A stretch of DNA of 64,000 bases from assembly GCF_051903065.1 (NCBI RefSeq), contig NZ_CP178438.1; one strand, given 5' to 3'. This DNA comes from Escherichia coli (lineage in GTDB: Bacteria > Pseudomonadota > Gammaproteobacteria > Enterobacterales > Enterobacteriaceae). Of the stretch, positions 22,872 to 55,593 are shown in pieces. Below the pieces are notes generated by a model. It saw only the letters and a list, made by a program, of their open reading frames with translations. It searched no databases and was not told the origin of the DNA. A program made the position numbers and the translations under genes. How positions within the stretch are numbered: position 1 is the stretch's first letter; every line of letters begins with the position of its first letter.

Positions 22872-22929
22872 CATGCAGGTTATAAAACCAGCACGTCCTT
22901 GCAATAGTTTCAGTATGGTATTAGCATTG

Positions 22930-23018
22930 ATGCGTTAGATGATGGCTATCTCACTCCAGCCAGAGCCACCAACTCAGGGCTGGAAAGTAAAAAACCGACG
23001 CAAAGTCGGTTTTTTTAC
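22930..23018 (+). ncRNA. agrB: AgrB-like antisense small RNA candidate ending at an intrinsic terminator
   Basis: Second repeat copy (ttagatgatggctatctcactccagccagagcc) followed by ccgacgcaaagtcgg hairpin and T-run; 5' end estimated only. Confidence 0.4.
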
Positions 23019-23168
23019 GTCCTGATTCAGACCTCCTTTCAAATGAATAGCCAACTCAAAATTCACACCTATTACCTTCCTCTGCACATACACATTCGTT
23101 AAACCATATATGTTTTTGACTTATCCGCTTCGAAGAGAGACACTACCTGCAACAATCAGGAGCGCAAT

Positions 23169-25930: not shown

Positions 25931-27154
25931 ATGTCAATTGACTTTACCCCAGGTATGATAAATACATATCACGGCGATATTTATAACCGCACAACAGATA
26001 CCGACAATGTTAAAACACCAGACACACCGATGTGGCCTTGTGATAATCGGGAAGAACAACAACCCATTAATTCCACATTCTCTGGAGAAGGATACAACCC
26101 TGAACAATATGATTTAGCGCGGCAACACCTCCCACAAATTTATGCGTGCCGCACGAACACCAAATATACAGATGCAGACTACTCAAAAGTTGTGGCTCAA
26201 CTTGTAAGTCTTATTACTAACATTGAATCGATAAGTTCGACACCACTTACGCGGCAGGCACAGGAAATACTTAATCAAATTAATAACATTAGATACGAAA
26301 AGAACAAAAGTGCTGAATGTCGAATCATTGTTGTCGCTAATCCTAAACCCGACAAGGCAATCATAACTAAAATTAGCGTAGAAGAGGGAATACCAGTAAG
26401 ATTCAGTGTCCAAACCATGTTTTCAGATACTAATTTTATTGCTGAACAACGAGCTGACTTACCGACTAATATAAAAGATATTCAAAGCCTGTATCAAAAA
26501 ATGACGAAGTTATATATTGAGCACAGTGAAAATAAAAACAGGATGAAAGTCTTTGCCGGAACCAACTTTATTGATTTCAATATGACAGGACAGAACCTGT
26601 CCGGGTTCGTTCTAACCTTGTCAAGGTTTTATTTCGAAGATCTACTTAATATAAATTTCACTGACGCAAATTTAGGTGACACTATTTTTTCACATAAAGA
26701 ACACCCTACCCCAAAATTATATAAAGACGAACAATATCTTGACAAACAAATCGAAGGTTTATTTTCAACATTATTAACCATTAATGACAACTTTTTACGA
26801 GCAAAAGCGGAAATTGCTTCGACAATAATTAAATTTTTAGAGGCCAGGATAACCAATCTTTCATACAACGACATATTAAAATATCAGCAAGAATTCCAAA
26901 AACAATGTTATAAGCAAGTTAAAGCCTTTACGACACTCTCCCGATACAATAAAATTCAAACATGGGCAGAAATGTCTGAATATCAATTCGAAGTATTTCA
27001 ATACGAGACGCTTAACCCAAAAAAAATGTCACGCACGCCTTATTTAAAGAGGCCACTTCCTGATGAAAAAGATATAAATTATGGGGTGGAAATAGAAATA
27101 CCGTCTGGTAAAAGAATTCGCTTATCAAATCATTATCAGAATATAATACCATAA
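25931..27154 (+). CDS. yhiS: Uncharacterised protein YhiS, intact; AT-rich with a pentapeptide-repeat-like middle segment
   Basis: 407-aa uninterrupted ORF; segment [46 protein letters not shown]. Confidence 0.65.
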
Positions 27155-28650: not shown

Positions 28651-28710
28651 ACGATTGATCAATATAAAGAGGCCCAGCAATAAATAGCCAGACCTCCCGT
28701 TAATTATACG

Positions 28711-29739
28711 TTATGCAGCAACGCCTTCCGGTATCAGCGAAGCAATTTGCTTACGCCATTGCGCTTGCTCCTGTTCGCCTTCTGTACGTTGACCATAAAG
28801 TTGCGCTATCTGCGTACCATCATGGGCAAACAATTCCAGACTGGTTACGTAGCCATCGCTGGTCGGTTTACGGGTAACCCAGGCTTCAGCAATGCTCTCT
28901 TCTAATAGATGAAGAGTAAACGTCGGGTTGAAAATATTCAGCCAACCTTTCATTGGCACCACTTTTTCTACCACACCGGTGAAAATCTGTACGCAGCCAC
29001 GGTTGCCAACAAACACCATGATTTCATTACCATCCTGCTGTGCAGATTCAAGAATTTGCGCCAACGCACTGTTGGATACTTTGCAGGCCAAATCGTCCGC
29101 CACCAGATTGAACGCCTGTTGGCGCGTCAGGTTGTGGCGCTTGAGCAACGTAAAAAACTGATGAACGTCGGTCATCGCCCGCCACTCTTGCTCGACCACA
29201 GTGGCATCGGCTCGCGTTTGAACAACTGGCGCATCAACGGCTTTTAACTCAAGCGGCGTATTCTCATCGGTGATAAACCGTGCCAGAAGCTCACTCCATG
29301 CCGCCATATCGGTATTGTCGGTGGCATAAACTTTTAGTAATGCATCGCCCTGATGATCAAAGAACTGAATACTTTGGCGTTCGCCACGAGCCGTGTTTTC
29401 TTTGATGTGGAAAACACTGGCCCATTGATTGAGAAACAGACGTAAATCCAGCGCGCGTGGATTGAGGATCAATCCGGCATGTCCGTTCAAATGCTGGTTT
29501 GTGAACGTACCAACTTGCTCATGGACTGCATATTCATTACGGCAAATACATTTGGTCTCGCCAACACTTTCGAGCGCCGCCAGAATTTCACGGATATCGC
29601 CGCGCATCCGCCACGCATCGTGCGTGACGCGTGCAAATGCCAGTTCTGCTTCTCTAATATTCATTAACCCTGCGATGTCACGCGCGTACTTTCCGGGTCT
29701 TTGTTCTTTTAACTCAAGCCAGCGTGTGTAGTGGTTCAT
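28711..29739 (-). CDS. chuS: Haem-degrading/haem oxygenase-like protein ChuS
   Basis: 342-aa ORF next to chuA with a ChuS/HemS-like two-domain layout. Confidence 0.85.
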   Translation of the reverse strand: MNHYTRWLELKEQRPGKYARDIAGLMNIREAELAFARVTHDAWRMRGDIREILAALESVGETKCICRNEYAVHEQVGTFTNQHLNGHAGLILNPRALDLRLFLNQWASVFHIKENTARGERQSIQFFDHQGDALLKVYATDNTDMAAWSELLARFITDENTPLELKAVDAPVVQTRADATVVEQEWRAMTDVHQFFTLLKRHNLTRQQAFNLVADDLACKVSNSALAQILESAQQDGNEIMVFVGNRGCVQIFTGVVEKVVPMKGWLNIFNPTFTLHLLEESIAEAWVTRKPTSDGYVTSLELFAHDGTQIAQLYGQRTEGEQEQAQWRKQIASLIPEGVAA

Positions 29740-29787
29740 TGTCTCTCTTCCTTCCAGATAAATGCCCCGAAATATCGGGGCAGATGA

Positions 29788-31770
29788 TTACCATTGATAA
29801 CTCACGAAAATTTTTCCGTTACGACCATCCTGTGGGATGCCTTGCGGCGACCAGTACTCTTTGTCGAAAGCGTTACCCAACACCAAAGTAGTGGTCATAC
29901 CTTTGAGCGCCTGTTGTCCTTGATAACTGACGTAGAAATCATTCACGCCATAGCCTGGTTGTTTGCTGTAACTGCTGCTGATATGTGTTGAGCGATCGGC
30001 AAACGTACCAACCCACCCAACAGAGAAGCCACTGTGAGCGATCGGAATATTCAGAGTGCTGGTAACGGTATCCGGGTTAATGCTGGAGATGTATTCGCCG
30101 GTATCGGTGTCTTTGCCGCGGGTACGGTTATAGGCCACATCAAGGCTAAACAGATCAGAGGTATATTTCGTCATCACATCCCAGCCCCAGATTTTGGCGT
30201 TCGGGACGTTATACGACATAGTCGTCGCCGCCGCGAAATCGACGGTCGTGGAGATGTAATCCTTCGCTTTGGTATCAAAGTAGCTGGCTTTAAATTCCAG
30301 AGCATCATTGGACAACATCAGGTCATCAAAACGCAGCCCAAAACCGTACTCCTGAGTTTCGTTAGTTTCCGGACGTAAGTTCGGGTTTGGCACCCAATAG
30401 TTGGTATAGAAGCGACCAATCGAGAAGTGCTTAGAATCGTTATACATTTCGCCCATCGTCGGGGCGCGGAATGCCTGGGCATATGAGCCAAATAACATCA
30501 GCCAGTTAGTCGGATTGATAGTCATCCCCGCACGAGATGACCATTTGTCGGCATCAACATCTTTGTAACCGTCACTGCTACCGCGATAACTGTCATAGCG
30601 GGTTCCGCCAAGCAGGGTAATCGGCAGATCGCGTAAGGTGATCTCATCCTGTAGCCAGCCGGAGCTAAAATCGATTTTTGCTTGCGGGAAGCCCGTCGTC
30701 GCGCCGCCCGGATGTTGTTCCTGACGATAATACTCACCGCCATATGTCAGTAAGTGAGAAGCGAAACTGTCGGCAAAGAGAGTGGAACGGTTCTCCAGCC
30801 TGGCTCCTTTTGTTATCTGTTCACGATACTCGCCGGAACTCCCCGTGTTTTGCGCATTAATACGGACTTCCGACCAATAAATTTTTGCATCTGCATTTAA
30901 CCAGTCGTTGCCCTGCGGGGCGAGTTTATAAGAAAGCTGCGCATCGCGTTGAATTGTTGAACGATCAACCATCGGGTTGCTGCTTTCAGAAGCCTCAACG
31001 GTCTGCGGATTTTTTGGTTCACGCGCGTCGTTGTTGTAGTAACGCACTAAACCGCTCAGAGACTGGGCTGAATCAATTTGCCAGGTCCCTTTCGCCAGCA
31101 TGTTATTAATGGACTCGTCATTCGGCGCGGTTTCACCATTGCTCTGGCGTAAATCACCCCGATCGCGACTGGACCAGGCCACAATACCATCCAGATTTTC
31201 AGTTCGCCCAAACGCGCTCGCGCCTAATCCCAGGCTATGGTCCCCCGTGCCGCCAGTACCAAAGACACGAAAACCACTGCTTTGTCCTTCCTGCAATAAA
31301 TCTTTTGCATCGACCGTATCGTAGGAGATCACTCCACCCAGCGCGCCACTGCCATACAGTAATGCTGAAGGTCCGCGAACAATCTCAACACGCTTGATCA
31401 GCGCCGGATCGAGAAAAGTGCCATTCAGGTGTCCGGTATCCGTTCCCTGGCGAACACCATCGATAAGAACCAGCACGCCGCGATGATCATAGCCACGCAT
31501 ATTTACATCCTGACCGTTGGTTCGTCCGGTACCATCCAGAGTCATTCCAGGAACATGACGCAGCAGATCGGTGGCTGAAGTAGCCGTTTGATTTTCAGGA
31601 GCGGAAGTGTCGATGACGCTGACCATCATAGGCGCTTCGAAGGAACTACGGGCATTCCCCGTTGCCGTAACGGTCATGGTTTCAGTAGCAAAAGCAAACG
31701 TTGGCAAGGTGGCAGAAACAGCCAAGGCCAATAAACTCAAACGCAACGAGGTAAATTGCGGACGTGACAT
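29788..31770 (-). CDS. chuA: TonB-dependent outer membrane haem/haemoglobin receptor ChuA
   Basis: 660-aa ORF with signal peptide, TonB-box-like ETMTVTA, and terminal aromatic residue of a beta-barrel. Confidence 0.9.
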   Translation of the reverse strand: MSRPQFTSLRLSLLALAVSATLPTFAFATETMTVTATGNARSSFEAPMMVSVIDTSAPENQTATSATDLLRHVPGMTLDGTGRTNGQDVNMRGYDHRGVLVLIDGVRQGTDTGHLNGTFLDPALIKRVEIVRGPSALLYGSGALGGVISYDTVDAKDLLQEGQSSGFRVFGTGGTGDHSLGLGASAFGRTENLDGIVAWSSRDRGDLRQSNGETAPNDESINNMLAKGTWQIDSAQSLSGLVRYYNNDAREPKNPQTVEASESSNPMVDRSTIQRDAQLSYKLAPQGNDWLNADAKIYWSEVRINAQNTGSSGEYREQITKGARLENRSTLFADSFASHLLTYGGEYYRQEQHPGGATTGFPQAKIDFSSGWLQDEITLRDLPITLLGGTRYDSYRGSSDGYKDVDADKWSSRAGMTINPTNWLMLFGSYAQAFRAPTMGEMYNDSKHFSIGRFYTNYWVPNPNLRPETNETQEYGFGLRFDDLMLSNDALEFKASYFDTKAKDYISTTVDFAAATTMSYNVPNAKIWGWDVMTKYTSDLFSLDVAYNRTRGKDTDTGEYISSINPDTVTSTLNIPIAHSGFSVGWVGTFADRSTHISSSYSKQPGYGVNDFYVSYQGQQALKGMTTTLVLGNAFDKEYWSPQGIPQDGRNGKIFVSYQW

Positions 31771-31775
31771 AGCGA

Positions 31776-31791
31776 TTCTCCATGAGGAAAA
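31776..31791 (-). promoter_or_regulatory. FourU-type RNA thermometer hairpin occluding the chuA Shine-Dalgarno
   Basis: mRNA sense UUUUCC-UCAU-GGAGAA immediately before the AUG; six pairs including one G-U. Confidence 0.55.
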
Positions 31792-32059
31792 TAAAAAATG
31801 CTGGCTGCCTGGGTTAATACCGGGGTGGCTGGCGAAAAATAAATTTATTTAAAATTCAGAGCGATAATATTCGCCGGGTGAGTTTACAGGCGTTTATATC
31901 CCATGAAATTGCCTGATAACTCGGCAATTACGCAAAAGCACGCCCTCTTTGTCAGGCAAAACGATATGCCCCATCAGGAGTGAAGAGAGCTGTGCGTTAT
32001 CCCTTGCAAATGCTATGGTTTTGTTATCCATATGGTCGTGTTTTGTTAAATGCAAACGT

Positions 32060-32078
32060 GATAATGAGAATTATTATC
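32060..32078. promoter_or_regulatory. Fur box, likely the chuA promoter operator
   Basis: gataatgagaattattatc, about 16 of 19 matches to GATAATGATAATCATTATC. Confidence 0.6.
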
Positions 32079-32410
32079 GATCAATTTTTTATGATCAAGT
32101 TTTTTTTTAACCACCATTAACACAATAAACAGGGGGTTATGAAACCTATCCTGCGCCCTGTAAACCACCTTGTTTTTATGGTTATCCCCCCATGCCTCAT
32201 CACTAAATTTTGTCGTTAACAGTGATAATTTTTTCTTCTCTTTGCTCTGCAAGCCTCGATATCTCTGGGTTCTCAGCTTTTTCCCGCGATGAAATTTAGT
32301 CGGTAACAAGAACGTTAGCTGACGAAGCATCTTGATAAAAATCAAAAATAAATACGCTTGTAACGCCTTGCGTATTGAATCGACGGTTGTATTTCATATA
32401 TAACTCAAAT

Positions 32411-32429
32411 GATAATCATGATCATTCTC
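32411..32429. promoter_or_regulatory. Fur box upstream of chuT
   Basis: gataatcatgatcattctc, strong match to the Fur consensus, about 25 bp upstream of ATG 32453. Confidence 0.6.
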
Positions 32430-32452
32430 AATTTGATAAGAGTTCTCATATT

Positions 32453-42873: not shown

Positions 42874-45800
42874 ATGGCTAACTATTTTATTGATCGCCCG
42901 GTTTTTGCTTGGGTACTTGCCATTATTATGATGCTTGCAGGTGGTCTGGCGATCATGAACTTACCGGTTGCGCAGTATCCGCAGATTGCGCCACCGACCA
43001 TTACCGTCAGCGCTACCTATCCGGGTGCCGATGCGCAAACGGTAGAAGACTCGGTCACTCAGGTGATTGAGCAAAATATGAATGGGCTTGATGGCCTGAT
43101 GTACATGTCTTCAACCAGTGATGCGGCGGGTAATGCCTCTATCACTCTGACCTTCGAGACTGGGACATCTCCTGATATCGCACAGGTTCAGGTGCAAAAT
43201 AAACTGCAACTCGCTATGCCTTCATTACCTGAAGCAGTGCAGCAGCAGGGGATTAGCGTCGATAAATCGAGCAGTAATATCCTGATGGTAGCGGCGTTTA
43301 TTTCTGATAACGGCAGCCTCAACCAGTACGATATCGCGGACTATGTAGCGTCTAGTATCAAAGACCCGCTAAGCCGTACCGCGGGCGTTGGTAGCGTACA
43401 GCTCTTTGGTTCCGAGTACGCCATGCGTATCTGGCTGGACCCGCAAAAACTCAATAAATATAACCTGGTACCTTCCGATGTTATTTCCCAGATTAAGGTG
43501 CAAAACAACCAGATTTCCGGTGGTCAACTGGGTGGCATGCCACAGGCGGCAGACCAGCAGCTAAACGCCTCGATCATTGTGCAGACGCGTCTGCAAACGC
43601 CGGAAGAATTTGGCAAAATCCTGTTGAAAGTTCAGCAAGATGGTTCGCAAGTGCTGCTGCGTGATGTCGCCCGCGTCGAACTTGGGGCGGAAGATTATTC
43701 CACCGTGGCGCGCTATAACGGCAAACCTGCTGCCGGGATCGCCATCAAACTGGCTACCGGAGCAAACGCCCTGGATACCTCGCGGGCAGTCAAAGAGGAG
43801 CTGAACCGCTTATCAGCCTATTTCCCCGCAAGTCTGAAGACGGTTTATCCTTACGACACCACGCCGTTTATCGAAATTTCTATTCAGGAAGTTTTCAAAA
43901 CACTGGTTGAGGCTATCATCCTCGTCTTCCTGGTCATGTATCTGTTTTTGCAGAATTTCCGTGCCACAATCATCCCGACGATTGCCGTACCGGTGGTTAT
44001 TCTCGGGACGTTTGCGATCTTGTCGGCGGTCGGTTTCACCATCAACACGTTAACTATGTTCGGGATGGTGCTGGCGATAGGGTTACTGGTGGATGACGCC
44101 ATCGTAGTGGTGGAGAACGTCGAGCGTGTCATTGCGGAAGATAAGCTACCGCCGAAGGAAGCGACGCATAAATCGATGGGGCAGATCCAACGTGCGCTGG
44201 TCGGTATTGCCGTTGTTCTTTCCGCAGTGTTTATGCCGATGGCCTTTATGAGCGGTGCAACCGGGGAGATCTACCGCCAGTTCTCCATCACGCTGATCTC
44301 CTCCATGCTGCTTTCAGTATTTGTGGCAATGAGCCTGACCCCTGCCCTGTGCGCCACCATTCTGAAAGCCGCGCCGGAAGGCGGTCATAAACCTAACGCC
44401 CTGTTCGCACGCTTCAACACGCTGTTTGAAAAATCAACTCAGCACTATACCGATAGCACCCGCTCGCTGTTGCGTTGTACCGGTCGCTACATGGTGGTCT
44501 ACCTGCTGATTTGCGCCGGGATGGCGGTGCTGTTCCTGCGCACGCCGACCTCTTTCTTACCAGAAGAGGATCAGGGGGTATTTATGACCACCGCGCAGTT
44601 ACCTTCCGGTGCCACCATGGTTAACACCACGAAAGTGCTGCAACAGGTGACGGATTATTATCTGACTAAAGAGAAAGATAATGTCCAGTCGGTGTTTACC
44701 GTTGGCGGCTTTGGCTTCAGCGGCCAGGGGCAAAACAACGGCCTGGCGTTTATCAGTCTCAAGCCGTGGTCTGAACGTGTCGGTGAGGAAAACTCGGTTA
44801 CCGCGATCATTCAGCGGGCAATGATTGCGCTAAGCAGTATCAATAAAGCCGTCGTCTTCCCGTTCAACTTACCCGCGGTGGCTGAACTGGGTACCGCGTC
44901 AGGTTTTGATATGGAACTGCTGGACAACGGTAACCTGGGGCACGAAAAACTAACCCAGGCACGAAACGAGCTGTTATCACTGGCAGCGCAATCACCGAAT
45001 CAGGTCACCGGGGTACGCCCGAACGGCCTGGAAGATACGCCGATGTTCAAAGTGAACGTCAACGCCGCGAAAGCTGAGGCAATGGGTGTGGCGCTGTCTG
45101 ATATCAACCAGACAATTTCCACCGCCTTCGGCAGCAGCTACGTGAACGACTTCCTCAACCAGGGGCGGGTGAAAAAAGTGTATGTCCAGGCAGGCACGCC
45201 GTTCCGTATGTTGCCGGATAACATCAATCAATGGTATGTACGCAACGCCTCTGGCACGATGGCACCGCTTTCTGCCTACTCGTCTACCGAATGGACCTAT
45301 GGTTCACCGCGACTGGAACGCTACAACGGCATCCCGTCAATGGAGATTTTAGGTGAAGCGGCGGCCGGGAAAAGTACCGGTGACGCAATGAAATTTATGG
45401 CAGACCTGGTCGCTAAACTTCCGGCAGGCGTCGGCTACTCATGGACCGGACTGTCGTATCAGGAAGCGTTATCCTCAAATCAGGCTCCCGCGCTATATGC
45501 CATTTCACTGGTCGTGGTGTTCCTCGCCCTCGCCGCACTTTATGAGAGCTGGTCAATTCCGTTCTCGGTGATGTTGGTTGTTCCGTTAGGCGTCGTTGGC
45601 GCATTACTGGCCACCGATCTGCGCGGCTTAAGTAATGACGTCTACTTCCAGGTTGGTTTGCTGACCACCATCGGGCTTTCCGCCAAGAACGCCATCCTGA
45701 TTGTCGAATTTGCCGTTGAGATGATGCAGAAAGAAGGGAAAACGCCGATAGAGGCAATCATCGAAGCGGCGCGGATGCGTTTACGCCCAATCCTGATGAC

Positions 45801-45987
45801 CTCTCTGGCCTTTATTCTCGGCGTGCTGCCGCTGGTTATCAGTCATGGTGCCGGTTCTGGCGCGCAAAACGCGGTAGGTACCGGCGTGATGGGCGGGATG
45901 TTTGCCGCAACAGTGCTGGCAATTTACTTTGTTCCGGTCTTTTTCGTTGTAGTGGAACATCTCTTTGCCCGCTTTAAAAAAGCGTAA
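42874..45987 (+). CDS. mdtF: RND multidrug efflux pump MdtF (AcrB family)
   Basis: 1037-aa 12-TM ORF with AcrB-type N-terminus [20 protein letters not shown]. Confidence 0.95.
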
Positions 45988-45998
45988 CGTGTAAATGA

Positions 45999-46032
45999 GA
46001 GTAAGGTTGAACGTGAAGGTTCAGCCTTACTC
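45999..46032 (+). terminator. Hairpin after mdtF
   Basis: gagtaaggttgaac ... gttcagccttactc with one mismatch, 11 bp after the stop; weak T-tract. Confidence 0.4.
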
Positions 46033-46349
46033 TTTCCTGCTAACCATTCACCACTCAACAACCAGCTAACCGTCAGGAATACCAGGCTTAGTACACAGCA
46101 CTGAAAGTAGAAACCACTCCAGCCATTCGTCATCAATTTGAACAGCACAATACTGACCCACATTCCCGTAATCGTATGAATTGTCAGCTTAATAATCCCA
46201 AACATGCCTAGTCTTTTCCTCCTGAAAATACCTATACCGCCTGGCAAACTGCGAAAGAGAACTAGCCGGTAGCCCGGCAGAAATCATCAGGGAAGAGTTT
46301 CACATGAAGCAGGTGTGAGATCCTGACCAATATTCAAATGCGAAATATG

Positions 46350-47078
46350 TCAGGAAAAGGTACCTGGCGAATGTTGCGCAAACTGATGTGGCGTTACACC
46401 ATAATATTGTCGAAATGTGTTTATAAAGTACGATGTACTGCTATAGCCACATTTTTCCGCAATAGTATGCAGAGGAATTTGACGTAACTCGAGTAATCGT
46501 CTGGCCATCGACATCCTGGAGGCGAGTAATATTTTACTGAAACAGGTATTTTCATCCTGCAACTTTTTTTTGATTAGACTCTCGCTGGTATACATTCTTT
46601 CCGCGATATCGCGCAGATACCAACGTTTAGCGATATCAAAGCTAATAAGGCGTTCAACTTTTCCTGAAACAGTACTGATGCTATTGAAAAGTAAGGGGAT
46701 CAGTTCTTTCTTATGAGAAAACATCGATAAACAGGAAAGATAGAGCATTTTGCTCAGTATCGGCGAATTTACCCCGGAGTCATTGAAACTATCAAAAATC
46801 GCCGTCACCAGCGGCATGGGGGGTGACTGGTTAATTAACAGACGGTCTTTGCTATGTAACCCTAAATTGCGTGGTAGCTGACGAATATTTTGTAAGTAAT
46901 GGCAAACTGTCAGCTCATCGATATCCAGCCGTCGCGTATCCGGTGAACAAAACGCAAAATCGTCTGCCAAATTTTTATCCAGCAGCAGGATACTCTCGTT
47001 ATGCAGCGATATTTTTTGCTGTTCATGATAAATATCGAATGAACGACGAATGAGGATCACCGAGCAGACATGAGTCAT
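46350..47078 (-). CDS. gadW: AraC-family regulator GadW
   Basis: 242-aa ORF with C-terminal AraC HTH. Confidence 0.9.
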   Translation of the reverse strand: MTHVCSVILIRRSFDIYHEQQKISLHNESILLLDKNLADDFAFCSPDTRRLDIDELTVCHYLQNIRQLPRNLGLHSKDRLLINQSPPMPLVTAIFDSFNDSGVNSPILSKMLYLSCLSMFSHKKELIPLLFNSISTVSGKVERLISFDIAKRWYLRDIAERMYTSESLIKKKLQDENTCFSKILLASRMSMARRLLELRQIPLHTIAEKCGYSSTSYFINTFRQYYGVTPHQFAQHSPGTFS

Positions 47079-47323
47079 GATTATCCCTTATATTTCATAC
47101 TGCGATTATTTCAATTTCAGTATACTAATGAAATGATGCCAGACTGTTTCTTAGCGCAAAAACTGCCAGATTTGGTAGGACCAAAATTTATCCACAAAGT
47201 AGTTTTGCATAACAGTTAATTGATAATAAGTAAATGCAACACGAATATATTTTCGCACAGCGTATAGCTTATGTTTATAAAAAAATGGCTGATCTTATTT
47301 CCAGTAAAAGTTATATTTAACTT

Positions 47324-47429
47324 ACTGAGAGCACAAAGTTTCCCGTGCCAACAGGGAGTGTTATAACGGTTTATTAGTCTGGAGACGGCAGACTATCCTC
47401 TTCCCGGTCCCCTATGCCGGGTTTTTTTT
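47324..47429 (+). ncRNA. gadY: GadY small RNA, antisense to the gadX 3' end
   Basis: Matches remembered GadY start ACTGAGAGCACAAAGTTTCCCGTGCC...; ends in cccggtcccctatgccggg hairpin plus T8. Confidence 0.75.
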
Positions 47430-47445
47430 ATGTCTGAGTAAAACT

Positions 47446-48270
47446 CTATAATCTTATTCCTTCCGCAGAACAGTCAGTGCCGTAAAAATTCCCTTGCGCA
47501 ACAATACTTGCCGCCGAGTCACGGTTCGACAATCTCTGCGCCGATCGCTCCTGATACTCTGTGGGCGTCATCCCATAATAATTTCGAAAGACGTAAATGA
47601 AATACGACACGCTGTGATATCCACAGGATACTGCAACTCGCTTAATTGAAAAACCATGTATAACAATAAGTTGCAAAGCACGTTTCATTCTACACTCAGT
47701 AAGCAACTGTGAATATGATGTCTCTTCTTCGCGCAATTTTTTCTTTAACAGACTTGGACTCATCAACAGCTCGCTGGCGATTCGGGCTAGTGTCCACTCA
47801 TGGGCGATATTATTATTGATAACCGTACAAACTCGTGTTCGCATGTTCGGTTGTAAAACGTTCAGAAGCAGCGGTATAAAGTGCTCATCCTCAAGAAAAA
47901 CAGATAACAACGCAAAGATTAATGCTCTTTTACGTAGCATTTCTGCATAGCGAAGATTCTTATTCTGCGATAGTTGCGCAACTTCCTGAAAAACAGGAAT
48001 ATCTCTGCTACAGTGATGAACGAGTAATGAAGAAACTTTTTTATGTGCATGAAGATTTAATGCCTCCTCCTTGAGCATCGGGAGAAATAATGAAAGCGTG
48101 TCCCTTGACACGAATACAAAATTTTCAACACACTTATCTACTCGAATTTGGCTTGCATCCGCAAAAACCAGGTCACCGCCATTAAAATAGCGATATTCAC
48201 CATTAACCATGGTGAGAATATATTTATGTCTTGCATACGCAATTAGACAATTCCCATGTAGTGATTGCAT
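47446..48270 (-). CDS. gadX: AraC-family regulator GadX
   Basis: 274-aa ORF with C-terminal AraC HTH. Confidence 0.9.
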   Translation of the reverse strand: MQSLHGNCLIAYARHKYILTMVNGEYRYFNGGDLVFADASQIRVDKCVENFVFVSRDTLSLFLPMLKEEALNLHAHKKVSSLLVHHCSRDIPVFQEVAQLSQNKNLRYAEMLRKRALIFALLSVFLEDEHFIPLLLNVLQPNMRTRVCTVINNNIAHEWTLARIASELLMSPSLLKKKLREEETSYSQLLTECRMKRALQLIVIHGFSIKRVAVSCGYHSVSYFIYVFRNYYGMTPTEYQERSAQRLSNRDSAASIVAQGNFYGTDCSAEGIRL

Positions 48271-48639
48271 AGTTGACTTAATATTACATAAACATATTAC
48301 TGTTTATTAATGTAGCACGCCGCCCTCTTAAGTCAAATTGATTGATAAATAAATTTAAACGAAGCGGGAGAACAGGATGATAATGTGTGATGTTCTACGG
48401 GCAGGATGACTGGATTTATAATACAAATACGTGTTTAAGAACGCAGGGAAATTAATAGTAAGCAAATAATCCCTTTTCGTGACATTAAAGGTAATCGCTA
48501 CATTTAATAAACATTCATATAACATATATCTTATCAACACGATGAATAGACAGCCAATATATTATTGCGATTAATAAGCAACCGAATGCCCAGCTGTTTT
48601 TTTAAAGGCTGGGCATTCGGTTTTTACAACGTTATGTTA

Positions 48640-50040
48640 TCAGGTGTGTTTAAAGCTGTTCTGCTGGGCAATACCCTGCAGTTTCGGGTGATCGCTGAGA
48701 TATTTCAGGGAGGCTTTGTAGTCTTCCAGCAACAGTTCAGCAAAGTCCATTTCGAAGCCGCGACGACACATAATGCGCATCACCACGATGTCGGTGGCTT
48801 CACCGCCGAGAGTGAAGGCCGGAACCTGCCAGCCGCGCAGACGCAGACGTTCAGAGAGGTCGTACAGGGTGTATCCCGGATCTTCACCATCTTTCAGTTT
48901 GAAGCAAACTGCCGGGATGCCTTCGTCCGGGCGACCCGTACAGATGAACTCATACGGCCCCAGTTTGGCGATTTCATCCGCCAGATAAGCGGCAACCTGG
49001 TAAGAGGCGTTCTGTACTTTGGTATAGCCTTCACGACCGAGGCGCAGGAATTCATAGTACTGTGCAATTACCTGACCCGCCGGGCGGGAGAAGTTGATGG
49101 CAAAAGTACCAATCTGACCCCCCAGGTAGTCAACGTTGAACACCAGTTCCTGCGGCAGCGCTTCTTCGTCACGCCAGATAACCCAGCCGCAGCCCAGCGG
49201 AGCCAGACCGAATTTATGGCCTGAAGCACTGATCGATTTCACACGCGGCAGGCGGAAGTCCCAGACGATATCCGGGGCGACGAACGGTGCCAGAAAGCCA
49301 CCGCTGGCGGCGTCGATGTGCATGTCGATGTCGATACCGGTGTCGGCCTGGAATTTATCCAGTGCATCGTGCAGCGGTTGCGGGAACTCATAGTTACCGG
49401 TGTAGGTCACGCCGAAAGTCGGCACCACGCCGATGGTGTTTTCGTCGCAGGCTTCAATCATGCGTTTCGGGTCCATAAACAACTGACCGGGGCGCATAGG
49501 GATCTCACGCAGCTCCACATCCCAGTAGCGGGCGAATTTATGCCAGCAGATTTGTACCGGACCGCACACCAGGTTTGGTTTATCCGTTGGTTTGCCTGCA
49601 GCTTCCATACGCTTGCGCCAACGCCATTTCATCGCCATCCCGCCGAGCATACAGGCCTCGGAAGAACCAATGGTGTTGGTGCCAACGGCCTGACCATTTT
49701 TCGGCGCAGGCGCATGCCACAGATCGGCAACCATATTTACGCAACGCAGGTCGATGGCTGCGGATTGCGGATATTCTTCTTTGTCGATCCAGTTTTTATT
49801 GATCGACAAATCCATCAATTTATGGACGTTTTCGTCGTCCCAGGTCTGGCAGAAAGTGGCCAGGTTCTGACGAGCGTTGCCATCAAGATATAATTCATCA
49901 TTGATAATCTGGAATGCGACATCATCGCGCATTTCGTGCAGCGGAAATCGTTTTGACTCCGCGATAGTAGAAATGGCCTTTGCGCCAAAACGTGAATCGA
50001 GTAGTTCTGAGCGGAAATCCGTTAACAGCTTCTGGTCCAT
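48640..50040 (-). CDS. gadA: Glutamate decarboxylase alpha
   Basis: Translation from [21 protein letters not shown]; 466 aa; PLP-lysine region SISASGHKF. Confidence 0.9.
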
Positions 50041-50119
50041 TTCGAACTCCTTAAATTTATTTGAAGGCAATAAAAAAGTAGGATTTATCCGCAATGGAAG
50101 CAAGGCATTACAGGCTTAA

Positions 50120-50139
50120 TTTAAATAACAAAATCCTAA
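50120..50139 (-). promoter_or_regulatory. GAD box (GadE/GadX/GadW site) upstream of gadA
   Basis: Reverse complement TTAGGATTTTGTTATTTAAA, identical to the remembered 20-bp GAD box. Confidence 0.7.
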
Positions 50140-50250
50140 GCAGAAAAACGACTTTTTATAATATAAACATTTAACATGATAATATTAAAAACAGACTTTA
50201 TTATCATAATAAAAATCGCCCAAACATTCCTGTTCGGGCGATCAAATTAA

Positions 50251-51648
50251 TTATTGTTTATCCTGCATATACGGCGTGTACACCCCGTTCAGACTGTGCA
50301 GGAAAGCTACGATATCATCCACATCCTCCTGCGGCAGCTCTTTGCCTACCTGATAGCGCAACATCAGCTTCACCGCCCCGTCCAGCGTCGGCACGTCACC
50401 GCGATGGAAGTACGGTGCCGTTAAAGCAACGTTACGTAAACCGGGTACTTTCTGACGCAATTTATCACGCTCTTCTTTAGTAACATTCATACGACCAATA
50501 TCCGCCGCCGTAATTTCACCAAAGTTAAAGTCTTTTTTCAGCCCCAACGGTTCGAAGGAACGTCCGCCGAGAATAATACCACCATGACAAGTTGCACATT
50601 TATTATCTTTAAATAATTGATAGCCTTTTTTCTGTTGCGCCGTCAGCGCATTCTCATCTCCACGCAACCATTTATCAAATGGGGAATCCGGCGTAATTAA
50701 TGTTTTCTCAAATTCAGCAATGGCATCAGTAATATTTTCGCCACTGAAACCTTGCGGATAGACTTCGAGGAACTGCGCTTTAAGCCGCGGATCTTTTTCC
50801 AGCTTGGCAATAATTTCGTCCCAGGATTTTGACGCCATTTCAATCGGGTTCAACGGCGGTCCACCAGCCTGATCCTGCAATGTTGCCGCACGGCCATCCC
50901 AGAACTGCTCAACGTTAAATACTGAGTTAAATACCGTCGGCGCGTTAATCGGCCCAACTGCGCCACCAACACCAATTGATGTTTTTCTGCCATCGACGCC
51001 CCCCGCATTCAACGCATGGCAATGAGCGCATGAAATGGTGCTATCAGCCGATAAACGGGGATCGTGATACAGCGCAAAGCCCAACGCCACTTTTTGCGCA
51101 TCGGTAGGCAGTTTTTGCGGGATGGGCTGCACCGGTTCATTGCGATGCTCCGGAGCAGTATCATTGCTGGCGTAATATTCCGCGCGCTGTTTTGCAATCC
51201 AGGCCAGTATTTCCGCCCGCTCTTCATCACTCACCTTACCCGCCCAGTGAAGCGCGGTATAACGCGTTGGTGGCATAGTTTCATACTGCATCACCCATTC
51301 AATCTTATTCAGATCGCTTTGCGAAACGGGTTTATCAGCCAGCAGTGCCGCACGCACGGCCTCGAGGTTAAAAGATTTATATCCAAGCTTAATGTCGTAA
51401 TCCATCAACTGTTTCGCGCCAGGAATATAATAATAGGCGGGTAATTCTGCCGAAGGCGTGTGGCAATAGTCGCATCCTTTTTCGCGGAGAAAGCCTAAAA
51501 CCTTATTATTTTCACTGACAGCAGATGCCTGAACATCGGCCTGTTTACTGCGTTTATTATCGTGGTACCACACATAACCAGATAACCCTAAATAGCAAAT
51601 CGCGACGCCAGCCAGGCCGATCGCGGTAATACGTGAGACCATTTTCAT
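50251..51648 (-). CDS. yhjA: Dihaem cytochrome c peroxidase (YhjA/Ccp)
   Basis: 465-aa ORF with three CxxCH haem motifs (CDYCH, CAHCH, CATCH). Confidence 0.9.
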   Translation of the reverse strand: MKMVSRITAIGLAGVAICYLGLSGYVWYHDNKRSKQADVQASAVSENNKVLGFLREKGCDYCHTPSAELPAYYYIPGAKQLMDYDIKLGYKSFNLEAVRAALLADKPVSQSDLNKIEWVMQYETMPPTRYTALHWAGKVSDEERAEILAWIAKQRAEYYASNDTAPEHRNEPVQPIPQKLPTDAQKVALGFALYHDPRLSADSTISCAHCHALNAGGVDGRKTSIGVGGAVGPINAPTVFNSVFNVEQFWDGRAATLQDQAGGPPLNPIEMASKSWDEIIAKLEKDPRLKAQFLEVYPQGFSGENITDAIAEFEKTLITPDSPFDKWLRGDENALTAQQKKGYQLFKDNKCATCHGGIILGGRSFEPLGLKKDFNFGEITAADIGRMNVTKEERDKLRQKVPGLRNVALTAPYFHRGDVPTLDGAVKLMLRYQVGKELPQEDVDDIVAFLHSLNGVYTPYMQDKQ

Positions 51649-51755
51649 TATTCTTCCCTCACGGTGGTGAGTTATTGTGACCCAGAAAATTTTCCAGAAT
51701 GCTGCAAACGTCTCTGCGAGACAAAGCCATCATAAAAAACAGGGAGATACGCTTT

Positions 51756-51769
51756 TTGATAGGAATCAA
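51756..51769. promoter_or_regulatory. FNR site upstream of yhjA
   Basis: TTGATaggaATCAA, perfect half-sites of TTGAT-N4-ATCAA, about 110 bp before the ATG. Confidence 0.55.
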
Positions 51770-52021
51770 TCAATTACATGAATATAAACTATCAATAAGA
51801 TAGCCTGTGCCTATTACCCAGATCAGGAATGGCATATCATGATTGCGGCGAGAGCAGGATTGAATGTTCTGAAAATGAAAAACAACACGAAATCTGTATT
51901 TTTATAAATTCCATTGATATTAGTGCGTTATATTTTTTGACAGGTTAATAAACGTGATCCACCGCACGCTTTGTCGCCCACCAGGCGGAGCGAATGACTA
52001 CCCTTAAAGAAAAGCCGATAA

Positions 52022-53701
<1,680 letters not shown>

Positions 53702-53703
53702 TA

Positions 53704-53744
53704 TTTTTACAGCCAGCCGCTAACTTCCTGCTGGCTGTAAAATT
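53704..53744. terminator. Bidirectional terminator between treF and yhjB
   Basis: tacagccagc / gctggctgta 10-bp perfect stem flanked by ttttt and aaaatt. Confidence 0.6.
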
Positions 53745-53751
53745 ATCCTCT

Positions 53752-54354
53752 TCAGGAGGAGATATTTAACATCATTGCCGCCTGGGTGCGATTTTTCACT
53801 TCCAGACGGCGATACAGGGATTCCAGATGCGCTTTTACCGTTCCGGTACTGATATTCAGCGCTCTGCCGATCTCCTTATTTGATTCGCCCGCCGCTAACA
53901 TGGTTAAAATCTCCCGCTGGCGGGCGCTTAACGATTTGAGATCTTTAATGTCCTTTTCCGGCGTCGTCCGCCAGTCTCCAGGCAGAAACATCATCCCCAT
54001 CGCCGCACTATTTACCGCCAACGCAAATGTCTCGACGGTTGAATCACGAGGCACAATGGCCAGCACATTAAAATGAATAACTTCCTGTAACCACCGTTTA
54101 TTGCAATCCGTCGCCGTGATTAACACCTTAACCTCAGGAAACTGCACCACGGTTTTTTGCAGTAACCAGTAGCAAAACTCACCATCCTGATCGCCATCGA
54201 GCATAACTAAGGCTTCAGGGTAACTTTCCAGCTTTTGCCATAACTCGTCTGCCTGACTGGCCCCCTGAATACTCACTCCTGGAATACGCTGCTGTAAACT
54301 GATTTTCATTCCATGAATAAATATTGACTGCCTGTCAAACATGACTATTTGCAT
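53752..54354 (-). CDS. yhjB: LuxR-type response-regulator-like protein YhjB
   Basis: 200-aa ORF with receiver-like N-terminus and C-terminal LuxR HTH. Confidence 0.8.
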   Translation of the reverse strand: MQIVMFDRQSIFIHGMKISLQQRIPGVSIQGASQADELWQKLESYPEALVMLDGDQDGEFCYWLLQKTVVQFPEVKVLITATDCNKRWLQEVIHFNVLAIVPRDSTVETFALAVNSAAMGMMFLPGDWRTTPEKDIKDLKSLSARQREILTMLAAGESNKEIGRALNISTGTVKAHLESLYRRLEVKNRTQAAMMLNISS

Positions 54355-54518
54355 AACTGAATCTCCACCTGAATACGTTAAAAAGACTTAAGTAGTGGAA
54401 GGGTATTACCCGCGAGAAAAAATAAGAATTCGCCATTTGGCGGTGGCCATTCTACAGAGATGACGCGTAGAAAATAGTTACCGATATAAATAGTTACAGC
54501 TAAACGCCTGAAATTACA

Positions 54519-54527
54519 TGTCGAGGG
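54519..54527. repeat. Left 9-bp target-site duplication TGTCGAGGG
   Basis: Identical 9-mer immediately outside both terminal inverted repeats. Confidence 0.85.
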
Positions 54528-55584
54528 GGCTTTGTTGAATAAATCAGATTTCGGGTAAGTCTCCCCCGTAGCGGGTTGTGTTTTCAGGCAATACGCACGC
54601 TTTCAGGCATACCTGCTTTCGTCATTTTGTTCAGCGCTCGTACCAGGGCCATAGCCTCTGCAACCTGACCATCGTAGTCACGCAGTGTCAGTGAACCCCC
54701 GAACAGCTGTTTTACCCGGTACATCGCCGTTTCCGCTATCGAGCGACGGTTGTAATCTGTTGTCCATTTCCACCGCGCATTACTCCCGGTCATTCGCTGA
54801 TTAGCCACTGCACGGTTACGGTCTGCATATTCACCGGGCCAGTAACCCGCACCTTTTCGGGGAGGGATAAGCGCGCTGATTTTCTTACGCCGCAGTTCAT
54901 CGTGACATAGCCGGGTATCGTAAGCGCCATCGGCGGCGGCTGACCTGATTTTCCGGTGGGTTTGCCGGATTAACCCGGGGAAGGCCTCTGAGTCCGTAAC
55001 GTTGTTCAGCGACAGGTCAGCGCAGATGATTTCATGTGTTTTACTGTCAACGGCGAGATGCAGCTTACGCCAGATACGGCGGCGTTCCTGGCCATGCTTT
55101 TTGACTTTCCACTCGCCTTCACCGAAGACCTTCAGCCCGGTGGAATCAATTACCAGGTGTGCGATTTCACCCCGGGTGGGCGTTTTGAAACTGACATTAA
55201 CCGACTTTGCCCGCCTGCTGACACAGCTGTAATCCGGGCAGCGTAGCGGAACGTTCATCAGAGAAAAAATGGAATCAATAAAGCCCTGCGCAGCGCGCAG
55301 GGTCAGCCTGAATACGCGTTTAATGACCAGCACAGTCGTGATGGCAAGGTCAGAATAGCGCTGAGGTCTGCCTCGTGAAGAAGGTGTTGCTGACTCATAC
55401 CAGGCCTGAATAGCTTCATCATCCAGCCAGAAAGTTATGGAGCCACGGTTGATGAGGGCTTTATTGTAGGTGGGCCAGTTGGTGATTTTGAACTTTTGCT
55501 TTGCCACGGAACGGTCTGCGTTGTCGGGAAGATACGTGATCTGATCCTTCAACTCAGCAAAAGTTCGATTTATTCAACAAAGCC
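54528..55584 (-). mobile_element. IS903-type insertion sequence (IS5 family), 1057 bp with perfect 18-bp terminal inverted repeats
   Basis: GGCTTTGTTGAATAAATC at 54528-54545 and its reverse complement at 55567-55584; internal transposase ORF. Confidence 0.9.
54584..55552 (-). CDS. IS903-family transposase
   Basis: 322-aa ORF matching the IS903/IS102 transposase as I remember it (…AKQKFKITNW.TYNKALINRGS.TFWLDDEAIQAWYE...). Confidence 0.85.
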   Translation of the reverse strand: MKDQITYLPDNADRSVAKQKFKITNWPTYNKALINRGSITFWLDDEAIQAWYESATPSSRGRPQRYSDLAITTVLVIKRVFRLTLRAAQGFIDSIFSLMNVPLRCPDYSCVSRRAKSVNVSFKTPTRGEIAHLVIDSTGLKVFGEGEWKVKKHGQERRRIWRKLHLAVDSKTHEIICADLSLNNVTDSEAFPGLIRQTHRKIRSAAADGAYDTRLCHDELRRKKISALIPPRKGAGYWPGEYADRNRAVANQRMTGSNARWKWTTDYNRRSIAETAMYRVKQLFGGSLTLRDYDGQVAEAMALVRALNKMTKAGMPESVRIA

Positions 55585-55593
55585 TGTCGAGGG
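55585..55593. repeat. Right 9-bp target-site duplication TGTCGAGGG
   Basis: Identical to the left copy. Confidence 0.85.

Follow-up and report, generated by a model that had tools for sequence, protein, structure and literature searches.

A chu-positive Escherichia coli with a textbook gadW-gadY-gadX-gadA segment in its acid fitness island

The stretch of E. coli DNA analysed here (64 kb, referred to as the window) carries a gadW-gadY-gadX-gadA segment of the usual kind within the acid fitness island, which very probably works as it does in K-12. The small RNA gene gadY and the GAD box of gadA in it match K-12 letter for letter, so their identification is correct but ordinary. Little importance attaches to the result beyond annotation: it describes a chu-positive E. 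coli with a textbook gadY and a textbook gadA GAD box. For every sequence element, the analysis established directly what it is, where it lies, whether it is intact and how well it is conserved. The genes of the circuit and the elements around gadY are the following:

40826-41353, plus strand: gadE, encoding the activator acting at the GAD box, with a Pfam GerE/LuxR domain
46350-47078, minus strand: gadW, encoding an AraC-family regulator of 242 aa with a Pfam HTH_18/HTH_AraC domain
47079-47445, minus strand: gadX 3' UTR, the gadX-gadW intergenic part of the transcript, delimited by the ORF geometry
47285-47317, plus strand: gadY promoter, placed by sequence reading, motif scan and the K-12 layout
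47324-47429, plus strand: gadY small RNA gene, 106 nt, assigned by identity to K-12 b4452 and a match to Rfam RF00122
47403-47429, plus strand: GadY intrinsic terminator (hairpin 47403-47421, U8 tract 47422-47429), from terminator scan and folding
47446-48270, minus strand: gadX, encoding an AraC-family activator of 274 aa with Pfam HTH_18 at residues 164-242
48580-48622, minus strand: hairpin after gadA with a 15-bp stem (-29.2 kcal/mol) and the tail GCUUAUUAAUCG, from the terminator scan
48640-50040, minus strand: gadA, encoding glutamate decarboxylase, 466 aa (Pfam Pyridoxal_deC, E = 2.6e-111)

The initial annotation had proposed a GadY-like small RNA at 47324-47429 on the plus strand and had named alignment to K-12 gadY as the check. 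The alignment with gadY of K-12 MG1655 (b4452, NC_000913.3 3664864-3664969, 106 nt) revealed 106 identical positions of 106 and no mismatches over exactly this interval. The Rfam GadY model (RF00122, gathering score 45 bits) matched positions 47321-47434 of the same strand along its full length (1-114) with 150 bits and E = 8e-32. Judged by its sequence, the small RNA gene is thus gadY itself. The minimum-free-energy fold was predicted to contain three stem-loops, the same as in the Rfam consensus structure, with the last one being the terminator. The fold was not more stable than those of shuffled sequences (z = -0.73), so the folding energy alone gives no support for an RNA. GadY occurs in forms of 105, 90 and 59 nt. 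In the permissive Rfam scan of 46000-51000, one match was obtained besides GadY, a 23-bit hit to 'mir-5345' on the gadA terminator hairpin, which was rejected as chance (threshold 95).

The gene occupies its canonical site between gadW (46350-47078) and gadX (47446-48270), on the strand opposite to both. Its terminator consists of a stem of six pairs, five of them G-C, with a 7-nt loop followed by T8, and the hairpin has a predicted energy of -8.8 kcal/mol. Between the last T and the gadX stop codon TAG (47446-47448, minus strand) there are 16 bases, a distance of 17 positions, which bears out the strong intrinsic terminator 17 bp from the stop described earlier; K-12 has the same spacing (3664969 versus 3664986). 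The gene, promoter, terminator, 16-nt spacer and placement between gadX and gadW are all identical to those of K-12 MG1655. Only one base of the gadW-gadY intergenic region differs from K-12: position 47239, situated 85 nt before the gadY start, where K-12 has G and the window has A, as do the other five lineages compared.

The gadY -10 hexamer TATATT at 47312-47317 corresponds to positions -12 to -7 relative to the start at 47324. The weak -35 CTGATC (47289-47294) is overlapped by a GadX/GadW-like 20-mer (47285-47304) and, according to the motif scan, by a ATGGCTGA motif (AppY site) at 47285-47292. An AppY motif, ATGSCWGM, was reported to overlap the gadY -35 (PMC10057817). The promoter region 47240-47323 is identical to that of K-12, including the AppY motif at the -35. 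A simple sigma-70 scan picked up neither the gadY nor the gadA promoter because of their weak -35 or -10 hexamers; both were placed by hand after the K-12 layout.

Of 5426 complete E. coli genomes, 5412 contained the gadY gene with its promoter, 5361 of them with at least 99% identity. Among seven lineages compared, the 189 bp of 47257-47445 (gadY, promoter and spacer) had no variable site, against 15 variable sites in the adjoining 178 bp (Fisher p = 1.4e-5), and 28 of the 274 positions of the GadX protein varied in the same lineages. The gadY promoter, the gadA core promoter and the GAD box were each invariant in these seven lineages. The RefSeq (PGAP) annotations of other genomes carry no feature under gadY, so an RNA-family scan is needed to see the gene.

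The position and strand of gadY make it antisense along its whole length to the transcript between gadX and gadW, and the complementarity is perfect over 47324-47429. The complementarity to the gadX 3' UTR claimed in the initial annotation thus holds, following from the convergent geometry of the two genes. The terminator scan of the minus strand between gadX and gadW revealed no terminator-like site, so the gadX transcript can run through the region complementary to GadY. Read on the gadX strand, the GadY hairpin has A8 before it and AAGAGG after it, in place of a U tract. In the literature, GadY is described as pairing with the 3' UTR of gadX mRNA and thereby stabilising it (PMC10057817), and RNase III and GadY are described as involved in the cleavage of gadX-gadW (PMC3919570).

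GadY might instead be mainly a trans-acting, Hfq-binding small RNA affecting unlinked targets such as sdiA, or biofilm formation, with the antisense effect on gadX being secondary. Pairing of GadY with sdiA mRNA and an effect on conjugation were described (PMC11300174), a role in biofilm formation was cited (PMC10057817), and the U8 tail together with AU-rich stretches predicted to be single-stranded would fit an Hfq-binding RNA. However, such functions add to the cis-antisense role and do not replace it, the arrangement of the genes dictates the perfect complementarity of all 106 nt to the gadX-gadW transcript, and the effect on gadX is the experimentally established one according to the accounts in PMC3919570 and PMC10057817. 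This alternative is therefore considered unlikely, and the cis-antisense action on gadX is retained as the preferred role of GadY.

The control region of gadA contains the following elements:

50075-50103, minus strand: gadA core promoter, with -35 TTGCTT (50098-50103), a 17-nt spacer and -10 TACTTT (50075-50080)
50079-50092, minus strand: RcsB-box-like sequence GCGGATAAATCCTA, abutting the gadA -10
50120-50139, minus strand: GAD box TTAGGATTTTGTTATTTAAA, site of the GadE/RcsB heterodimer, an exact match to the published sequence
50179-50198, minus strand: GadX/GadW-box-like 20-mer AAGTCTGTTTTTAATATTAT upstream of the GAD box, from the motif scan
50214-50243, minus strand: intrinsic terminator of ccp (yhjA), 13 pairs followed by TTTATTAT, from the terminator scan; upstream limit of the gadA control region

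The 20-mer TTAGGATTTTGTTATTTAAA is the published GadE site (PMC4918353). Its single occurrence in the 64-kb window, free of mismatches, is on the minus strand at 50120-50139. No second site was detected in the window at up to three mismatches, and none was found in 100 shuffles. The proximal edge of the box lies 80 bp upstream of the gadA ATG (50040, minus strand), so the exact GAD box about 80 bp from the start codon that had been pointed out earlier is both unique and correctly placed. The box is separated from the gadA -35 TTGCTT by 16 bp (50104-50119). The K-12 layout is described in the same way, with the box 16 bp upstream of the -35, RcsB/GadE protecting -50 to -76 and the box being required for gadA activation (PMC2887963). 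From its letters and its setting, 50120-50139 is identified as the GadE/RcsB GAD box of gadA.

For GadX and GadW, the ChIP-exo motif AKGKCTGWTWTTWWYMYVAK was taken from PMC4918353. The putative box AAGTCTGTTTTTAATATTAT differs from it by two mismatches, and at this tolerance only three sites exist in the 64-kb window: upstream of gadA, in the gadY promoter and upstream of gadE. The ChIP-exo GadE motif TTARGAWWWWAAATA gave no match in the window at up to one mismatch, the GAD box included; as printed it is short and poor and misses even the GAD box, and it was discarded as a search pattern.

The K-12 gadA promoter has the same 20-mer at the same 16 bp from its -35, and it shares the -10, the RcsB-box-like sequence and the 5' UTR; over 50041-50205 the two sequences are identical. 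Two substitutions distinguish the region upstream of gadA from K-12. The one at 50206 is specific to the window and lies 8 nt upstream of the GadX/GadW-like box, and the one at 50229 falls within the ccp terminator and reflects a base peculiar to K-12 among the lineages compared.

The regulators and the enzyme encoded in the window are intact. GadA and GadE have no amino-acid differences from K-12 (rcsB lies outside the window). GadW differs from its K-12 counterpart by E34D, E100D and N110K, and GadX by Q196K and R267C. R267C is common to O157:H7; Q196K, which falls inside the HTH_18 domain, is unique among the seven lineages compared. The hairpin after gadA has a T-poor tail, GCUUAUUAAUCG, which would be consistent with transcription continuing into gadX.

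All 12 protein genes of the island (slp, dctR, yhiD, hdeB, hdeA, hdeD, gadE, mdtE, mdtF, gadW, gadX and gadA) are full length and in K-12 order, and their products contain no internal stops and show between none and three amino-acid changes each relative to K-12. The small RNA genes arrS, gadF and gadY are intact and identical to those of K-12, and the region from yhiD to yhjB is collinear with K-12 at 99.2% without indels. The 9-kb chu island between dctR and yhiD replaces only 35 bp of spacer and interrupts nothing. This haem-uptake island therefore leaves every acid-resistance gene untouched. The initial annotation had concluded from gadY and the GAD box that the acid-resistance circuit is intact despite the chu insertion. 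As far as the genes and small RNAs in the window are concerned, this stands, and it could not be derived from those two elements alone. The statement covers the window only, since gadBC, rpoS, rcsB, evgAS/ydeO and hfq/rnc lie outside.

For RpoS dependence, for the pairing, cleavage and stabilisation steps and for GadE/RcsB binding, the evidence comes from published K-12 experiments, and we infer that the same steps operate in this strain too. In stationary phase or mild acid, gadY would be transcribed from its own promoter (-10 TATATT, weak -35 under the GadX/GadW/AppY site), and its transcription would end at the hairpin and U8 terminator. GadY would then pair with the gadX-gadW transcript immediately after the gadX stop codon, and the duplex would be cleaved, in part through RNase III. 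The product containing gadX would accumulate and raise the level of GadX, which together with GadW may bind the AT-rich boxes upstream of gadA and gadE. Upstream of the gadA -35, at a distance of 16 bp, the GadE-RcsB heterodimer would bind the GAD box and activate gadA, and GadA would consume one proton per glutamate decarboxylated. The hok/sok, tisB/istR and lambda OOP/cII-O pairs likewise show perfect complementarity arising from overlapping convergent genes and duplex cleavage by RNase III, as described in PMC3919570. The antisense RNAs of those systems are described as repressing their targets, whereas cleavage with GadY raises gadX mRNA.

It is also conceivable that all these elements are present and that glutamate-dependent acid resistance is nevertheless impaired, either by a lesion outside the window (rpoS, gadBC, rcsB or evgS) or by GadX Q196K. 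Half of the acid-resistance circuit lies outside the window, natural E. coli often carry rpoS loss-of-function alleles, and Q196K is located in the DNA-binding HTH_18 domain (residues 164-242) and is unique among the seven lineages. Against this, all 12 island genes and the three small RNA genes are intact, the change from Q to K is a conservative one of surface type, and acid resistance is described for strains whose island carries chu in the same layout (PMC10540162). An impaired circuit thus appears quite improbable. There is only a slight chance that Q196K and the base change at 50206 could shift GadX-dependent control so that the output from GadY through GadX to gadA would be unlike that of K-12. 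That the hairpin and T-run at 47403-47429 merely terminate the neighbouring genes and mark no separate RNA is hardly credible: they do lie 16 nt from the end of gadX, but only on the plus strand does a T-run come after the hairpin (A8 before and AAGAGG after it on the gadX strand), so the hairpin cannot terminate gadX, the -10 TATATT stands at the correct distance from the annotated gadY 5' end, and the entire 106 nt constitute an experimentally defined RNA gene. The reading of the segment as a K-12-like gadW-gadY-gadX-gadA unit is therefore maintained.

The chu island is present in 2238 of the 5426 complete E. coli genomes. In O157:H7 Sakai, EAEC 042 and OgGp9:H18, as here, the chu haem-uptake cluster (O-island 140) is located between dctR (yhiF) and yhiD, while the slp-gadA genes otherwise keep the order they have in K-12 (PMC10540162). 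The chu sequence of the window is only 98.9% identical to that of O157-like strains, and the gad side of the island is 99.5% identical to K-12 versus 98.7% to O157:H7. The window as a whole is nearly identical to E. coli strain 23CRST027, and its chuY gene is frameshifted.

The search of the whole window against all Rfam families showed that the GadY family (RF00122) matches the plus strand over its full length at 47321-47434, with a score of 150 bits (gathering score 45, E = 8e-32) and agreement with the family consensus at every position. In the K-12 MG1655 RefSeq record, gadY (b4452) occupies 3664864-3664969, and all 106 nt were present with no mismatch at window positions 47324-47429 (plus strand), where the initial annotation had correctly placed a gadY-like gene. 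It had proposed alignment to K-12 gadY as the check, with divergence as the adverse outcome; the alignment showed no differences. The small RNA gene is the standard, experimentally characterised gadY, identical to that of K-12 and already known.

The ORF map of the 44-54 kb region contained three genes, all on the minus strand:

46350-47078, minus strand, 242-aa ORF with an AraC-type HTH domain (Pfam), gadW
47446-48270, minus strand, 274-aa ORF with an AraC-type HTH domain (Pfam), gadX
48640-50103, minus strand, ORF with a pyridoxal-dependent decarboxylase domain (Pfam), gadA; the ATG-initiated form (48640-50040) encodes 466 aa

The gene order in the K-12 MG1655 RefSeq record is gadW, gadY, gadX, gadA and ccp; over this gadW-ccp segment the window has the K-12 length (5299 bp), with 47 substitutions and no indels. 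The intergenic differences from K-12 within 47079-50250 were located at 47239 (one base), at 48428 and 48443, and at 50206 and 50229. None was detected in gadY, in the 16-nt gadY-gadX spacer or over 50041-50205.

Upstream of gadY, two promoter elements were recognized:

47289-47294, plus strand, weak -35 region CTGATC, overlapped by ATGGCTGA at 47285-47292
47312-47317, plus strand, -10 element TATATT, positions -12 to -7 relative to the annotated gadY 5' end

The overlapping ATGGCTGA is consistent with the AppY motif ATGSCWGM, which is reported to overlap the gadY -35 region (PMC10057817). A 20-mer that likewise begins at 47285 corresponded to the GadX/GadW ChIP-exo motif (PMC4918353) with two mismatches, and at this level only three sites were found in the 64-kb window, namely in the gadY promoter and in the regions upstream of gadE and gadA. 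The predicted GadY fold comprised three stem-loops, in agreement with the Rfam consensus. Compared with shuffled sequences, the complete GadY RNA did not have an unusual folding energy (z = -0.73); the case for gadY is built on homology and context rather than thermodynamics.

After the final GadY stem-loop (47403-47421; 6 pairs, -8.8 kcal/mol) comes a U8 tract; its last U (47429) and the first base of the TAG stop codon of gadX (47446-47448) are 17 positions apart, a spacing equal to that in K-12 and in accordance with the terminator distance described initially. Read on the gadX strand, the hairpin has A8 before it and AAGAGG after it, and is therefore unable to terminate gadX. The terminator scan detected no further minus-strand terminator between gadX and gadW; hence, a gadX transcript running on toward gadW would be perfectly complementary to the entire GadY, which bears out, for a transcript of that extent, the suggested complementarity to the gadX 3' UTR. 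The arrangement is the same as that described for K-12, where the gadX mRNA is stabilised through GadY pairing with its 3' UTR (PMC10057817).

The second regulatory element indicated, an exact GAD box about 80 bp upstream of the gadA start codon, was found as described. TTAGGATTTTGTTATTTAAA, identical to the published GadE site (PMC4918353), had a single occurrence in the window (gadA strand, 50120-50139), with its edge 80 bp upstream of the ATG at 50040. No second GAD box was detected in the 64-kb window at up to three mismatches, and none occurred in 100 shuffles. On the gadA strand the box is followed by 16 bp, TTGCTT (50098-50103), a 17-nt spacer and TACTTT (50075-50080), with one more element adjoining the latter:

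50079-50092, minus strand, RcsB-box-like sequence GCGGATAAATCCTA, adjoining the gadA -10

A GadE/RcsB heterodimer is reported to protect positions -50 to -76, and the box to be needed for activation (PMC2887963). The 20-mer is an already known element, the gadA GAD box in its standard, experimentally characterised form and with the K-12 sequence.

Both elements are nearly universal in E. coli. Of 5426 complete E. coli genomes, 5383 contained the 47079-50250 interval with a coverage of at least 80%, its identity being 99.5% to K-12 strains and 98.7% to an O157:H7 strain, and 5412 contained gadY with its promoter (176 bp), with at least 99% identity in 5361; no annotated feature lay beneath gadY among the matches listed. 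In an alignment of seven lineages (whole-interval identity 95.5% to 99.5%), no site was variable over 47257-47445 (189 bp), compared with 15 in the adjoining 178 bp (Fisher p = 1.4e-5) and 28 of the 274 positions of the GadX protein. The GAD box, the gadA -35 and -10 and the RcsB-box-like sequence were all invariant in these seven lineages.

The acid-resistance circuit had also been called intact despite the insertion of the chu haem-uptake cluster. This cluster (28652-37709, 9058 bp), carried by 2238 of the 5426 complete E. coli genomes, stands in place of 35 bp of the dctR-yhiD spacer of K-12. As it interrupts no gene and all 12 island protein genes are full length, the conclusion holds within the window; gadBC, rpoS, rcsB, evgAS/ydeO, hfq and rnc are encoded elsewhere. 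GadE, GadA, HdeA, HdeB, HdeD and YhiD are identical to the K-12 proteins, and amino-acid changes were found in Slp (1), DctR (2), MdtE (1), MdtF (2), GadW (3) and GadX (2). The arrS, gadF and gadY nucleotide sequences are identical to K-12, and yhiD to yhjB (37710-54460) aligns to it without gaps at 99.2%. The chu-bearing layout equals the O-island 140 layout described for O157:H7, EAEC 042 and an acid-tolerant outbreak strain (PMC10540162). Two small caveats concern GadX Q196K (window 47685), located inside the HTH_18 domain and absent from the six other lineages compared, and position 50206, located upstream of the GadX/W-like box in the gadA promoter at a distance of 8 nt, where the gadA strand carries T, unlike in all six other lineages aligned. 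The other GadX change, R267C, also occurs in O157:H7.

Identity to K-12 is mosaic over 22916-54460 (ars-yhiS 96.1%, yhiS-dctR 97.9%, yhiD-yhjB, to the right of chu, 99.2%), which suggests recombination across the island. The closest match of the chu island (98.9%) was a group of strains of about 5.4 Mb, putatively O157-like. Strain 23CRST027 (human faeces, Ecuador) differed from the window by two substitutions and one indel over 64 kb. The chuY gene of the chu island (anaerobilin reductase, 35231-35853) is frameshifted: the C-terminal half of its 198-aa ORF (35231-35827) is aberrant, and the usual C-terminus can be read in another frame (35554-35853); in 23CRST027 it is annotated as a frameshifted pseudogene. 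An IS903B-like element (54528-55584, 1057 bp; region 54519-55593) lies between yhjB and rcdB; the inverted repeats are 18 bp long (GGCTTTGTTGAATAAATC) and the target duplication 9 bp (TGTCGAGGG). The transposase reading frame (54584-55552) is open in the window and, in 23CRST027, frameshifted by a 1-bp indel near 54858. The yhiS gene (25931-27154) is an uninterrupted 407-aa ORF here, split by IS5 in K-12 and labelled by PGAP as a frameshifted hypothetical protein in 23CRST027.

Beside dinQ, one AgrA/AgrB-type antisense RNA copy (22872-23032) was found versus two tandem copies in K-12; it matched Rfam AgrB at 22935-23018 and was identical to K-12 agrA at 81/82 and agrB at 77/82 positions. ArrS (40445-40514, minus strand), identical to K-12, did not reach the gathering threshold of any Rfam family. 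The Rfam ES205 match at 41471-41542 corresponds to the 3' part of K-12 GadF, a small RNA from the gadE 3' UTR (GadF region 41452-41542). The shuA/chuA 5' UTR RNA thermometer (RF02597) was matched at the chuA start (31768-31799, minus strand), scoring 60.1 bits (threshold 58).
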